DNA from: an uncultured Eubacteriales bacterium
Lineage (GTDB): Bacteria; Bacillota; Clostridia; Christensenellales; CAG-138
NCBI GenBank assembly: GCA_902786465.1
Contig: CADACQ010000013.1
Span: 2,723 to 66,722 of the forward strand
Direction: 5' to 3'
DNA: 64,000 bases
Shown here one piece after another: positions 1 to 34,256 of the stretch. Position 1 is the first letter of the stretch. Every line of letters begins with the position of its first letter. The position numbers and the translations under genes were made by a program. A model generated the notes under the pieces. That model did no database searches. It saw only the letters and a program-made list of their open reading frames with translations, and had not been told where the DNA came from.

Positions 1-457
1 ACTGGCGCACGACCATCAGCGTGGCCGCCGGAGCGGTGGCCGTGGCGATGGCGCCCAGAACGATGGTGGCCTCGATGGAGATCTTGTCGGGCATGGCAAA
101 ATGCAGGCCGATCAGCGCCAGGTCCACGAACAGCGTGGCTGTCAGGGCCTGACAGATGCCTACGATGACGGCCTGCTTGCCGATGGCTTTGAGCTGGGAA
201 AGCAGAAACTCGTTTCCGATGGAGAAGGCGATGAACCCCAGGGCCGCGTTGATGATCACAGAAAGGTTATCCACCTCGGCAGGGGTGGTGAAGCCGATGC
301 CTTCGATGCCCAAACGACCCAGGCAATGGGGCCCGACGATAAGGCCGGCGATCAAAAACGCCGTCACGTCCGGCAAATGGAGCCGAAGCATTTTGAACAC
401 GCGGGTCATCAGCAGCCCGATGAGCAATGCAATAGCCGCCGCGAGCATTTTTTCCAT
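1..457 (-). CDS. Cation:proton antiporter (CPA2/Kef-type), N-terminal part; runs off the window edge
   Basis: Not in the ORF track; translated by hand from ATG at 457 behind GGGAGG: MEKMLAAAIALLIGLLMTRVFKMLRLHLPDVTAFLIAGLIVGP...ALGFIAFSIGNEF...LGAIATATAPAATLMVVRQ, matching typical Na+/H+ exchanger TM motifs. Confidence 0.85.
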   Translation of the reverse strand, partial: MEKMLAAAIALLIGLLMTRVFKMLRLHLPDVTAFLIAGLIVGPHCLGRLGIEGIGFTTPAEVDNLSVIINAALGFIAFSIGNEFLLSQLKAIGKQAVIVGICQALTATLFVDLALIGLHFAMPDKISIEATIVLGAIATATAPAATLMVVRQ

Positions 458-556
458 ATATGATAAACCTCCCATTCACATCAAACAAGGGTGTATGATA
501 GCACGAAAAGAAATAAAGTCAAGAGCATAAATCTACTGCGAAAAGGGCAAAGCGGT

Positions 557-816
557 ATTTGACCTGCGCTTTGGCGCAGGCAGCAGCCCTCGATCGCTTG
601 CGTGTGAGCCGGGGTGGGATTTGACCTGCGCTGCGGCGCAGGCCATGGGCACGGCTCTGGATCGCCACTGGGGCTTCATTCACTACCGAACCCGTTCCCC
701 CAATTACTTGCGTGAAAGTCGGGGTGGGATTTGACCTGCGCTGCGGCGCAGGCCATGGGTTCGGCTCTGAAGCCCCACCGGGGCTTCATTCACTACCGAA
801 CCCGTTCAAATCCCAC
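557..816 (-). repeat. Tandem copies of a ~100-bp structured tRNA-associated element (full copy 721-816, degenerate copy 611-697, fragment 557-581)
   Basis: GGGGTGGGATTTGACCTGCGCTGCGGCGCAGGCCATGGG...CTTCATTCACTACCGAACCCGTTC repeats with a 110-bp period; a reverse-complement homolog lies at 32317-32418. Confidence 0.85.
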
Positions 817-827
817 AATTTCGGAGA

Positions 828-867
828 CAAGTTTAAAGGGAGGGTCGTAACCCTCCCTTTAAACTTG
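828..867 (-). terminator. Long hairpin directly 3' of tRNA-Ser(GCT), probable terminator
   Basis: CAAGTTTAAAGGGAGGG-tcgtaa-CCCTCCCTTTAAACTTG, 17-bp inverted repeat. Confidence 0.7.
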
Positions 868-958
868 GCGGAGAAAGTGGGATTTGAACCCACGCACCGG
901 TCATCCCAGTCTACTCCCTTAGCAGGGGAGCCCCTTATAGCCACTTGGGTATTTCTCC
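866..958 (-). tRNA. tRNA-Ser(GCT)
   Basis: Reverse complement GGAGAAATACCCAAGTGG...CTCCC-CT GCT AA-GGGAG, long variable arm, GGTTCAAATCC T-arm, encoded CCA. Confidence 0.96.
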
Positions 959-963
959 ATATA

Positions 964-1051
964 TGGCGGAGATGGTAGGATTCGAACCCACGGGCACTTG
1001 CATGCCGACGGTTTTCAAGACCGCTTCCTTAGACCACTCGGACACATCTCC
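964..1051 (-). tRNA. tRNA-Ser(TGA)
   Basis: Reverse complement GGAGATGTGTCCGAGTGG...GCGGT-CT TGA AA-ACCGT, long variable arm, GGTTCGAATCC, encoded CCA. Confidence 0.96.
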
Positions 1052-4022: not shown

Positions 4023-4056
4023 GCTGTTTTTCGGTATGATCCAAATAAAAATGTAA

Positions 4057-4400
4057 CGAGCAAGCAGTAAGCCGAGTTCTGTCACAGGTTTCCCTGCGGA
4101 CGATTATCTATCTGAGGCCGGCTGTTGCCAGACGGCTCATGCGATTATCAGGAGCGCAGCGGGCCGCTGTTGAATGCTCCCATTCCAATCTTGCACCGGG
4201 TGGGGTTTACATGGCCGATCCGTCGCCGGACCGCCGGTGAGCTCTTGCCTCGCCTTTCCATCCTTGCCTGCCGAAGCGGGCGGTTTATTTCTGTTGCACT
4301 TTCCCTGATGTCGCCATCGCCGGGTGTTACCCGGCACCCTGCCCTGCGGTGCTCGGACTTTCCTCAGCCCTTGAGGGGCCGCAATCGTCTTGCTTACTCG
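4057..4400 (-). ncRNA. rnpB: RNase P RNA
   Basis: Reverse complement contains GAGGAAAGTCC near the 5' end and ACAGAACTCGGCTTAC near the 3' end; P1 ends are complementary (CGAGTAAGCA / TGCTTGCTCG); located after the nif3-Zn ribbon genes. Confidence 0.96.
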
Positions 4401-32185: not shown

Positions 32186-32274
32186 GGAGACGTATCGAAG
32201 TGGTCATAACGGGGCTGACTCGAAATCAGTTTGCGTGAAAGCGCACGTGGGTTCGAATCCCACCGTCTCCGCCA
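32186..32274 (+). tRNA. tRNA-Ser(CGA)
   Basis: GGAGACGTATCGAAGTGG...GCTGA-CT CGA AA-TCAGT, long variable arm, GGTTCGAATCC, encoded CCA. Confidence 0.96.
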
Positions 32275-32312
32275 AAAACAAAACCACCCAACCGGGTGGT
32301 TTTGTTTTTGGC
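32271..32312 (+). terminator. Intrinsic terminator after tRNA-Ser(CGA)
   Basis: GCCAAAAACAAAACCACCC-aacc-GGGTGGTTTTGTTTTTGGC. Confidence 0.8.
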
Positions 32313-32316
32313 TATT

Positions 32317-32418
32317 GGAGACGGTGGATTCGAACGGGTTCGGTAGTGAATGAAGCGCCTGTGGCGCTTCAGAGCCGAGCCCATGGCCCGCCGCGCACGG
32401 CGGGTCGAATCCCACCCC
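32317..32418 (+). repeat. Structured tRNA-associated element, homolog of 721-816
   Basis: GGATTCGAAC GGGTTCGG TAGTGAAT GAAGCGCC-TGT-GGCGCTTC AGAG CCGAGCCC ATGG CCCGCCG-CGCA-CGGCGGG TCGAATCCCACCCC. Confidence 0.85.
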
Positions 32419-32632
32419 AGCTTACACGTACCCCCCTGGGGGCCGCAAGCCACCCGCCTAGTATCTTTCTTTGTTGGAGTTCAATCAAAACCTTAGGTTT
32501 GGAAAATGATACTTTTAATCCAAGTTGTCTTATTATTTCTTTACCGTTATCCACGCACATGATATAATTATGTTTAAGATTATGTCTATTCTTGTTTTTG
32601 CCTCTATTCTTTTGATTCGGGAGGGAAGAATA

Positions 32633-34036
32633 ATGCCTTATACTGAGATTTCGAGAAAGCCTTATAAGTCGCCCTGCGCATGCGGTAATGGATTCTTGCG
32701 TTTTTATATAATAACAAAAGAAAACGATACTGATTATGTTAAAACTATAGAGAAAAAAACTGAAGTAGAGATCCTATGCGATTATTGCAAAAACAATTAT
32801 CATTTCGAATGGTCAGATGATGAATGTGGATTTCTTGTCCCAAATGGTTTAACTTTTCCTCCTAGAATTCCTTATCTTGATAGTAAATATGATTACACTA
32901 CAGATGAAAAGTTTATCGGCAACCACGATAAAGGTGTTATTGAGAAAATGATTTCTGATATGACTGCGCCTAAGCATAGATTTATTCAAGACCTTACATT
33001 CGAACCTGCAATTGCTTTTGCAAATAATTGGGCATATAGAACAAAAAAACGCTCTTTAGCGCCAATGGTCAAATATCTTGAGAAAACTCTATCTAATTAT
33101 GATGCTATATTCACATCGCGCGCAAATAAAGAACCACATAATATTGAATACAAAAAACAGCATGAAGATAGAATACAGCGAATTGAACAAGTTAAGAACC
33201 AGAGCTATAAAGCAAATTTTGTATTTGATTCAGAACAAGATGAGATTGACCACGCGAAAGCTCGGAAAGAAAGAATTGCTCATCAATACGATCCTTTTCA
33301 AGCTATGGTGACTTATCATAATTCATATAAGGTTGATGCGACTGGACGTTATTGGGACACCCTTCATATTCTAAAATGCGTTGAACCACGATATTTTGTA
33401 CAAGAAAGCGCTTATCATCTTTCTATTGTAAAAAGGTATCTATGCAAGTGCACAATATGCAACAAGAAGCTGGTTGTTACTTCATCTGATTTTGAAATAT
33501 TATATGATGAATACGAAGGATACTTTCCTGCAGTTAAGTGTGACTGCCATATAGTATCATCATTTGAGGCAAAAGCAATGGATATCCTTAATCGCTTAGG
33601 GATTTCATATGCGCGCGAGTACTCATTTGACGATTTAGTTGGTAACAAAGATGTACCGTTACGTTTTGATTTTGCAATATTTGAACCAGATTCACAACAT
33701 AATAATTCCAGTAAAAAGATTCGACTGCTAATCGAATTGCAAGGCCCACATCATTATACGCGTGGCATATATGATAAAGATGGTAATTTTATAGAAGATA
33801 AAAGAGGAACATCTTTTTCCGCCAGAATTCGACTAAATAAGCAAAAATGCTATGATGGTTTGAAGCAACAATACTGCAAGGAGCACGAGATCATTTTAGA
33901 AACCATAAAACACGATGAAAGCGATTATACTACACTGGAAAAGCGACTGATAGATATTCTGAATCAAAATGGTTTTAATTGCAAGCAGGCTGAATTATAT
34001 ATTGACTCGGAAGAAGATTTGTTTGATCTTGATTAG
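32633..34036 (+). CDS. AT-rich orphan protein with Cys clusters and a C-terminal Vsr/DUF559-like endonuclease domain
   Basis: Strongly AT-rich versus flanks; CxC...CxxC at N-terminus; C-terminal S.FE...L....I.Y.REYSFDDL...LRFDFAI...LIELQGPHHY...D.LK.QYC....I.L..I pattern; start taken at MPYTE behind GGAGG. Confidence 0.7.
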   Translation: MPYTEISRKPYKSPCACGNGFLRFYIITKENDTDYVKTIEKKTEVEILCDYCKNNYHFEWSDDECGFLVPNGLTFPPRIPYLDSKYDYTTDEKFIGNHDKGVIEKMISDMTAPKHRFIQDLTFEPAIAFANNWAYRTKKRSLAPMVKYLEKTLSNYDAIFTSRANKEPHNIEYKKQHEDRIQRIEQVKNQSYKANFVFDSEQDEIDHAKARKERIAHQYDPFQAMVTYHNSYKVDATGRYWDTLHILKCVEPRYFVQESAYHLSIVKRYLCKCTICNKKLVVTSSDFEILYDEYEGYFPAVKCDCHIVSSFEAKAMDILNRLGISYAREYSFDDLVGNKDVPLRFDFAIFEPDSQHNNSSKKIRLLIELQGPHHYTRGIYDKDGNFIEDKRGTSFSARIRLNKQKCYDGLKQQYCKEHEIILETIKHDESDYTTLEKRLIDILNQNGFNCKQAELYIDSEEDLFDLD

Positions 34037-34047
34037 TTCTTCTCTAC

Positions 34048-34076
34048 TTGACTTTTTCTATCATCCTTTATATACT
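34048..34076 (+). promoter_or_regulatory. SigA promoter of the ABC-F gene, giving a ~175-nt leader
   Basis: TTGACT-N17-TATACT. Confidence 0.65.
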
Positions 34077-34256
34077 TGAGCCAACAACACAAAGGAGCAC
34101 TTCATTTAAGGCATGCGCAACTGATCGATTTTGAACGTCACATCATCCCTGCGGCACCCGGGTGTCGCTTAGTGTGTGCGCTCAAAGGATCACGACCGCA
34201 GGCTTTTTCTATTCTGCCGGACGTGCTTTTTCTGAGCGCGGAAATGGGAGGCAGAT

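Follow-up and report, generated by a model that had tools for sequence, protein, structure and literature searches.

An uncatalogued tRNA-linked repeat family in gut Clostridia, with flanking arms that match the neighbouring tRNA gene

The 64,000-nt stretch of Clostridial DNA analysed here (the window) carries near its beginning, on the minus strand, a pair of tRNA-Ser genes that is followed by a hairpin ("hairpin T") and then by an array of short repeated units, which stops short of the promoter-like site of a gene of the Na/H-exchanger family (Table 1). The array consists of two ~110-bp units and a fragment in window positions 552-816. Tandem Repeats Finder reports a period of 110 with 1.9 copies and 91% matches over 597-807, and a second repeat search finds two 110-nt copies (587-696 and 697-806, at 88%) and a partial third at 537-581; both searches thus bear out the decaying tandem array that an earlier, sequence-only reading of this DNA had described behind the tRNA-Ser pair. 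The same reading had placed a terminator hairpin directly after the tRNAs. A hairpin is indeed present at 829-865, but the name "terminator" is not confirmed for it, since a simple terminator scan gives 0 sites in 400-1200 and does not call this hairpin; its counterparts at other loci have a clear T-tract.

The unit has the order X' - arm 1 - arm 2 - X, in which X' and X are predicted to pair and so close a three-way junction. In unit 1 the X' strand (804-816, 13 nt) is 100% complementary to positions 877-889 of tRNA-Ser(GCT), and the X strand (724-734, 11 nt) is in turn 100% complementary to 806-816, exactly as expected from the earlier claim that the 5' strand is antisense to the tRNA T-arm and the 3' strand mimics it. 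In the window units X contains only 11 identical tRNA nucleotides, and CCA is absent. Arm 1 is made up of an outer stem, an internal loop whose two strands are TAGTGAAT and AGAG, an 8-bp inner stem and an NGT triloop. The minimum free energy (MFE) fold of 715-825 on the minus strand is the closing stem with two arms that had been proposed; its energy is -60.9 kcal/mol, and 200 shuffled sequences average -36.25 +/- 3.52 with 0 of the 200 as low (z = -7.0). The plus strand folds equally well (-62.3 kcal/mol, z -6.78). The window contains a second such locus at 32186..32415, where the unit behind tRNA-Ser(CGA) scores 97.9 bits with covariance model R1 (described below).

Table 1. Features of the two element loci in the window
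Feature	Position	Strand	Basis or remark
tRNA-Ser(TGA), first gene of the pair	964..1051	-	ARAGORN; Rfam tRNA, 55 bits
tRNA-Ser(GCT), last gene of the operon; the stretch from T-loop to 3' end is copied by the element	866..958	-	ARAGORN; Rfam tRNA, 56.4 bits
Promoter-like site of the tRNA-Ser pair	1115-1087	-	
Hairpin T, terminator-like, between tRNA-Ser(GCT) and unit 1	829..865	-	Part of a 30-nt inverted repeat
X' of unit 1, forming the closing stem on its 5' side; antisense to the T-arm of tRNA-Ser(GCT)	804..816	-	100% complementary to 877-889
Arm 1 of unit 1	757..803	-	MFE fold; covariation in helices 2 and 3
Arm 2 of unit 1, hairpin of 7 bp, loop CGCA	735..752	-	MFE fold; helix 4 of the alignment
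X of unit 1, forming the closing stem on its 3' side; repeats T-loop and T-stem 3' strand in the sense direction	724..734	-	11-mer identical to 877-887; pairs with 806-816
Spacer and truncated X' of unit 2	694..723	-	
Arm 1 of unit 2, chimera	647..693	-	3'-half type intact in G011 and G016
Arm 2 (625-642) and X (614-624) of unit 2	614..642	-	
Third-unit fragment, degenerate arm 2 and X only	552..580	-	
Promoter-like site of the Na/H-exchanger family gene that comes next; bounds the array distally	495..522	-	10/12 matches
Next gene, Na/H-exchanger family	2-475	-	Pfam PF00999
tRNA-Ser(CGA)	32186-32274	+	ARAGORN
Hairpin T (terminator hairpin) at the tRNA-Ser(CGA) locus	32274-32311	+	
X' of the tRNA-Ser(CGA) unit	32317-32335	+	
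Arm 1 of the tRNA-Ser(CGA) unit	32336-32382	+	
Arm 2 of the tRNA-Ser(CGA) unit	32387-32404	+	
X of the tRNA-Ser(CGA) unit	32405-32415	+	

These units belong to a repeat family that lies behind nearly every tRNA operon, and behind the tmRNA gene, of a genus of gut Clostridia. A combination of BLAST and a motif scan of the genome from which the window derives (G000; 58 contigs, 71% complete) found 14 copies with an intact arm-1 core, 12 of which sit 60-224 nt behind a tRNA gene on the same strand (Leu-TAA, Ala-CGC, Lys-CTT, Ser-GGA twice, Ser-GCT twice, Ser-CGA, Arg-ACG twice, Glu-CTC and Trp-CCA); the binomial probability of this linkage is ~1e-31, taking 250-nt zones behind 29 tRNAs. Its near-complete relative G009 has 16 of 19 model matches behind a tRNA or tmRNA gene, and ten of these start 42-50 nt past the end of the gene. 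Orientation is strict: all 69 copies found no more than 400 nt behind a tRNA or tmRNA gene point the same way as the gene, and 0 point the opposite way. The suggestion of a non-autonomous mobile or amplifying element that targets tRNA 3' ends fares well in so far as the units are gene-less, amplifying and linked to those ends; the word "mobile" does not, since no mobilising enzyme was found (below).

The flanking strands X' and X track the local tRNA at every locus and do not follow one common sequence. We compared them with the tRNA genes at 56 loci (the proximal copies from G000 and other contigs). For X' the match to the tRNA complement is 0.82-0.96 over T-loop and T-stem 3' strand and 0.3-0.45 over the acceptor region; X, which starts at the T-loop of the tRNA, agrees with it at a level of at least 0.95 through the T-stem and at 0.63-0.86 across the acceptor strand to CCA. 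Matching arms are present for at least 13 tRNA species in one genome.

Covariance model R1, built from the G000 copies, has 15 matches in G000 itself. Of the 16 other species of the genus, 15 have matches, at most 21 in any one genome; there is no match in one species filed in the genus, whose tRNA-Ser is divergent. Outside the genus R1 finds matches in two of 20 other genera of the family and in one of 24 other families sampled. The exact core pattern is rare in an even sample of the order (4/301 genomes, 3/150 genera), and it is present in at least 120 contig stretches of metagenome-assembled genomes of gut and rumen Clostridia (labelled Oscillospiraceae, Acutalibacteraceae and others) and in 13 viral contigs. 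The loci outside the genus were gathered with the core pattern and are hence a biased sample; among them, 147 core hits in 133 loci include 37 within 400 nt behind a same-strand tRNA and 91 with no tRNA in the locus. These latter, "general-type" copies have the same arm 1 and linker with other flanking hairpins, and their neighbours are ordinary genes or phage genes. By crude ORF calls, 28 of them lie on the same strand as the upstream gene, 24 on the opposite strand and 15 could not be called, which amounts to no preference. The arm-1 hairpin is therefore a module that the tRNA-linked units have in common with a dispersed repeat that has no tRNA linkage, a feature which escaped the sequence-only reading; G000 was found to contain the tRNA-linked type alone.

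At gathering scores Rfam has no family for either type. A search of the whole window matched RNase P and three tRNAs only, leaving the repeat element unmatched, and eight general-type loci gave 0 matches. The earlier reader could not assign a family name; in architecture the element does have a named relative, the E. coli TLR/RtT repeats, which are discussed below. Our literature searches found no description of the repeat family, and a search with the core string returned unrelated primers alone.

The arrays differ from one species to another. At the locus orthologous to the Ser(TGA)-Ser(GCT) pair, tRNA identity is 94-99% for four species of the genus and 82% for the divergent G002, whereas hairpin T, the stems of arm 1 and arm 2, and the copy number (1 to 5) all vary. 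The array of G011 has five units with identical spacers, built from three arm-1 types and two arm-2 types that are also met in other species; many units of this array have no hairpin T. Arm 1 of unit 2 in the window has a 5' half of the unit-1 type and a 3' half of a type that is intact in G011 and G016, and G007 has a similar chimera with a different breakpoint. Judging from these sequences, the chimeras probably arose when adjacent units recombined at their conserved loops, either unequally or through microhomology. The X'/X frame can also hold other cores, as it does behind tRNA-Pro(CGG) and tRNA-Arg(CCG) in G000; at the orthologous Ser(CGA) locus of G009 and G003 the core is different, with the frame and even its 4-nt bulge preserved. 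A search for X'-X frames without any core gave none; all 10 frames that lack the exact core have a gap of 47-76 nt, and an order of events in which the frame came first and the core later is unsupported, as X' is never directly beside X.

An alignment of 13 copies from G000 supports four helices, with 89.5% of the cells paired. Changes on both sides of the pair are present in 22 of 30 pairs, a number reached by 0 of 500 shuffles, and controls in which the alignment was slid are 31-47% paired, so the covariation for which the sequence-only reading had suggested looking is strong in the stems. The unpaired TAGTGAAT, the unpaired AGAG and the GT of the NGT triloop are invariant in 13/13 copies. 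Among 159 distinct copies the inner stem has Watson-Crick pairs at 1241 of 1272 positions (~98%), with 8 G-T and 7 A-C, and the outer stem at 837 of 954, with 6 G-T and 10 A-C; in the closing stem, by an ungapped mapping, there are 70 G-T and 117 A-C. None of the three stems has an excess of G-T over A-C, and the stem differences among copies are fully compensated changes. In an RNA whose structure is selected, G-U is normally tolerated much more readily than A-C. A G-T pair that is as rare as A-C, together with compensated stem changes, is what one would expect if the repeats were DNA palindromes in which one arm is copied from the other. These base-pair statistics, the dispersed and unoriented core, and the variation among arrays with the chimeric second copy in the window point to a repeat that acts at the level of DNA in preference to an RNA gene.

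The rival that has to be weighed first is a functional trailer RNA similar to RtT, for which transcription would read through past the hairpin, the X'-X stem would be cut by tRNA-processing nucleases and the internal loop would be bound by a protein. Such an RNA would agree with the strict orientation (69/69), with unpaired bases that are conserved between covarying stems, and with the fact that the same tRNAs keep the element in different species. Contigs from four RNA libraries partly cover positions 601-800 in two of the four runs (X4 and X6) and cover 801-1000 in X4, X6 and X7, with 401-600 uncovered in all four; these contigs carry neither strand nor ends and may include DNA carry-over, so they are a weak hint that transcription through unit 1 is possible. 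Excerpts of PMC8144298 describe the E. coli TLRs, moreover, as being transcribed and processed, with in vitro binding of Hfq and CsrA by three of them. On the other hand, the lack of a G-T excess in any stem is unusual for an RNA that is selected for its structure, and both strands fold equally well. A hairpin stands between the tRNA and the unit, the distal units decay, the core hairpin occurs elsewhere without regard to the direction of neighbouring genes, and the X of the window units has only 11 tRNA nucleotides and no CCA. We therefore consider a trailer RNA doubtful, and the "structured pre-tRNA trailer RNA" that had been offered as an alternative is unsupported in the form in which it was stated.

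Several loci have other DNA among the units. At tRNA-Trp the order is tRNA-Trp, T, unit, X, GNAT-family gene, T, unit, X (across a contig join of 99 identical bases), and in the tmRNA array of G009 an AT-rich segment of 0.35 kb lies between two units. Larger inserts lie ahead of an X remnant, after which come T and units; in locus L084 the insert has a methylase, a restriction enzyme and an ATPase, and in L201 it has phage tail genes. The distance between integrase genes and the orphan copies of G000 and G009 is 17-60 kb; for two of the copies in G009 there is no tRNA in the 20 kb upstream of each, and integrases are ~17 kb away. G000 has one integrase 4.5 kb after tRNA-Met. Ordinary islands and prophages probably enter the tRNA gene and push the pre-existing element away from it, the tRNA at the far end having been observed for tRNA-Met alone. 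The units then mark the ancestral 3' flank of the tRNA, and so they can help to delimit islands and prophages that were inserted there.

No mobilising enzyme linked to the repeat was found. Tyrosine integrases adjoin the islands and not the units. The Y1 HUH transposase family (PF01797) is present in one of five genomes of the genus and in none of the contigs of G000 (71% complete), the one match being at the level of the family with no RAYT identity implied, and reverse transcriptase (PF00078) is likewise found in one of five. Among 139 of the 192 ORFs that flank core copies (the 11 longest were left out of this Pfam set) there are two integrases, 0 transposases and 0 reverse transcriptases, and 14 of the other 53, scanned separately, include no transposase or reverse transcriptase.

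A second rival is that the unit is the folded single-strand attachment site of miniature integrative cassettes, comparable to the hairpin attP of phage CTX or to integron attC. A circle with the arrangement X - (cargo) - T - X' - core would, on folding, restore the duplex of the tRNA 3' end from X' and X. A recombinase would then insert the circle at the T-loop, the product being tRNA-X - cargo - T - X' - core - X, and further units would join the array on the tRNA side. The order of the arrays matches this product exactly, including cargo between X and T (the GNAT gene at tRNA-Trp, the 0.35-kb segment of G009). The T-loop is a classic integrase crossover site, and X starts there; tRNA and tmRNA genes are the targets, the proximal unit in the window is intact while the distal ones have decayed, and Watson-Crick stems fit folded DNA. 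Against this, no recombinase is linked to the units (two integrases in 139 flanking ORFs), and matching arms for at least 13 tRNA species in one genome would need as many switches of specificity. The larger cargo resembles ordinary islands or prophages that displace the element (L084, L201), the breakpoints of the chimeras differ in a way that fits microhomology better than one crossover point, and many units of the G011 array have no hairpin T. We regard such cassettes as quite unlikely. That the units are attR scars of successive conventional genomic islands, integrated in the tRNA gene and then lost, is very improbable: integrases do leave direct repeats of tRNA 3' ends, and integrase islands occupy some of the same tRNAs, but scars explain neither the antisense copy X', the constant offset of 42-50 nt and the presence of the core away from tRNAs nor a covarying hairpin core common to at least 12 tRNA loci, which already contradicts them.

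Among described repeats the closest in design are the tRNA-linked repeats (TLRs) of E. coli. [quoted passage not shown] Excerpts of a mobilome-sequencing preprint report no circular DNA at tyrT. There is no accepted origin for the TLRs. At tyrT-tyrV of E. coli K-12 we find four copies that match Rfam RtT (RF00391) with 133-138 bits, and in the RtT consensus two hairpins are enclosed by a closing stem in which an antisense stretch pairs with the 3' end of tRNA-Tyr. Both systems thus lie directly behind stable-RNA genes in the same orientation, both form tandem arrays, and both close an antisense strand against a copied end with two hairpins inside; at its end the unit repeats the 3' end of the RNA gene before it, over 18-19 bp in E. 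coli (by the same excerpts) and up to the whole T-loop-to-CCA stretch here. They differ in sequence. RtT has no match up to E = 10 on positions 480-1100 of the window, and R1 scores only 7.6-10.2 bits (E 0.2-1) on the RtT copies. The Clostridial core hairpin is distinct and has invariant loops of its own, a hairpin parts the tRNA from the first unit, the hosts are gut Clostridia and so of another phylum, and the core is in common with a dispersed repeat. On sequence comparison the element is best classed as having the RtT/TLR architecture without being a member of RtT, that is, as a separate and apparently uncatalogued family; what is new is the tRNA-linked family, and the kind is already known from E. 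coli.

A sequence family unrelated to the E. coli TLRs has the same design. It is conceivable, if unlikely, that tRNA-linked repeats from E. coli RtT to those of gut Clostridia are one widespread class, which builds its own closing stem from the T-arm and 3' end of the gene that it adjoins and is retargeted with no specificity determinant or enzyme gene. If so, they would propagate by an as yet undescribed mechanism that can install a hairpin core behind any tRNA or tmRNA gene. The question of the TLRs in any case becomes testable outside E. coli, with target-templated arms, a folded att site and a processed trailer RNA as the models.

Other known systems resemble the element in part. Like REP, BIME and REPIN sequences, the Clostridial repeats are short imperfect extragenic palindromes with a fixed motif beside a variable stem and a mosaic make-up; the letters GTAG occur in the loop region of arm 1, the stems are Watson-Crick at the DNA level, and the general type (though not the tRNA-linked one) has dispersed intergenic copies with no preferred orientation. 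They differ from REPs in that PF01797, the family that includes the RAYTs, is missing from four of five genomes of the genus, and in that the closing stem of the tRNA-linked form derives from the gene beside it, something that is not known for REPs. The CTX attP and integron attC have inverted copies of a target with a structured spacer, folding of which would rebuild the target duplex, and they add units in tandem at one site; the Clostridial element differs from them in having no recombinase that we could find, no GTTRRRY-type core motif (by eye) and more than 10 different target sequences in one genome. Islands and prophages of tRNA and tmRNA genes use the same target genes and are flanked by direct repeats of the tRNA 3' end. 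The Clostridial units, unlike these, are gene-less and carry an antisense copy and a conserved hairpin, and real islands occur additionally, between tRNA and element.

A number of further candidates were rejected. The unit does not fit a MITE, which has conserved terminal inverted repeats and a short target-site duplication, as its terminal stem is specific to and copied from each tRNA, and the flanking direct repeat is the tRNA end itself. Inspection by eye found only partial motifs of a hammerhead core, absent from the Ser-type units (and Rfam gave no ribozyme match), a misfit of the arm-1 internal loop to the K-turn and loop E consensus, and no integron attC core motif. The logic of a retroviral primer-binding site cannot put X' and X on one strand, and flip/flop of the type seen in AAV is not indicated, with 0 of 69 copies inverted.

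We read the element as a palindromic repeat of the REP/BIME type that is specialised for the 3' flanks of stable-RNA genes, and as neither a conventional RNA gene nor an integrase scar. With middling confidence we favour a hairpin element that is REP-like and acts at the level of DNA: the adjacent tRNA gene would provide the template for its arms, recombination would drive the turnover of its arrays, and a protein would read its invariant loops. The templating of the arms would be a matter of DNA copying, which might occur by template switching during replication or by quasipalindrome correction around the T-arm and terminator hairpins, and which would give a product of the order X - hairpin - X' - hairpin - X. 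The second terminator that such a fold-back predicts after the last X is present at some loci (Ser-GGA, tmRNA) but not at most, which counts against it. Arrays would grow and shrink by unequal or microhomology recombination. Template switching alone would be insufficient, because the invariant TAGTGAAT, AGAG and NGT need either selection or a very recent spread, and a protein would recognise these unpaired bases when the hairpin is folded. If the element also serves read-through tRNA transcripts as an additional barrier or processing module, that role would be secondary. The elements are kept at orthologous loci across species (by eye) even where the flanking genes have diverged, and this retention fits a host function at least as well as it fits selfish DNA.

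The DNA directly 3' of the tRNA-Ser(CGA) element in the window differs strongly in composition from its neighbourhood, with a GC content of 35-45% compared to about 62% in the surroundings. It contains an open reading frame whose 503-aa product matches no Pfam family above threshold. Since the stretch is absent from the equivalent position in the genomes of two other species of the same genus (G003 and G009), it is probably foreign DNA that was inserted behind the element.

Positions of features discussed in the text
Feature	Sequence	Position	Remark
Low-GC stretch	Window	32460-34200	Directly 3' of tRNA-Ser(CGA) element
503-aa open reading frame	Window	32525-34036	Inside low-GC stretch
Duplication around core unit	L067 (G009 C6)	940-1260	Counterpart in G000: C3, 3' of tRNA-Cys
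Array of three units	L059 (G009 C1:93500-98000)		3' of tmRNA gene; minus strand
tRNA-Met region	G000 C3	30703-91366	Tyrosine integrase gene 4.5 kb after tRNA-Met
Small defence-type gene set	L084	1827-5280	Uncultured Clostridia contig
REP-like hairpin	L216 (E. coli K-12)	780-830	Just past last RtT repeat; minus strand
Bacterial RNase P RNA class A	Window	4053-4400	271.5 bits; minus strand

In G009 a duplication of about 95 bp flanks a core unit. The duplicated piece runs from the final 9 nt of tRNA-Cys through the terminator to a stretch like X' (the antisense copy of the tRNA T-loop and T-stem); the source genome (G000) has a single copy of this piece downstream of its tRNA-Cys (contig C3), without the core. 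Two contig ends of the source genome (C43:14409 to C15:233; L008 and L009) overlap by 99 identical bases, from the end of C43 to the start of C15, and in the joined sequence a GNAT acetyltransferase gene lies 3' of tRNA-Trp between two nearly identical terminator-plus-element copies. The tmRNA array of G009 includes a unit with a divergent form of arm 1, the second of the three, and an AT-rich segment of 0.35 kb with a 46-codon open reading frame lies between units 2 and 3.

On a larger scale, a decayed tRNA-Met 3' end, accompanied by a terminator and two units, is found 60 kb downstream in C3 of the source genome, which suggests that a 60-kb island lies between tRNA-Met and this decayed copy. 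The defence-type set (an N6/N4 DNA methylase with a nuclease domain, an MjaI-family restriction endonuclease and an AAA_21/AAA_15 ATPase) is just upstream of a remnant of X (the sense copy of the tRNA 3' end), followed by a terminator and element.

General-type copies of the core (L203, L205, L097 and other loci), which are dispersed and not linked to tRNAs, adjoin terminase and portal genes in phage-like contigs and also flank an ABC-transporter operon on both sides; their 5' module often contains the string GCGAAGC. The E. coli REP-like hairpin has a loop string of this same type, as does the interior of RtT, although its occurrence in all three repeats may be a coincidence.

Among the RNA-library contigs, the RNase P RNA stretch of the window has by far the deepest cover.
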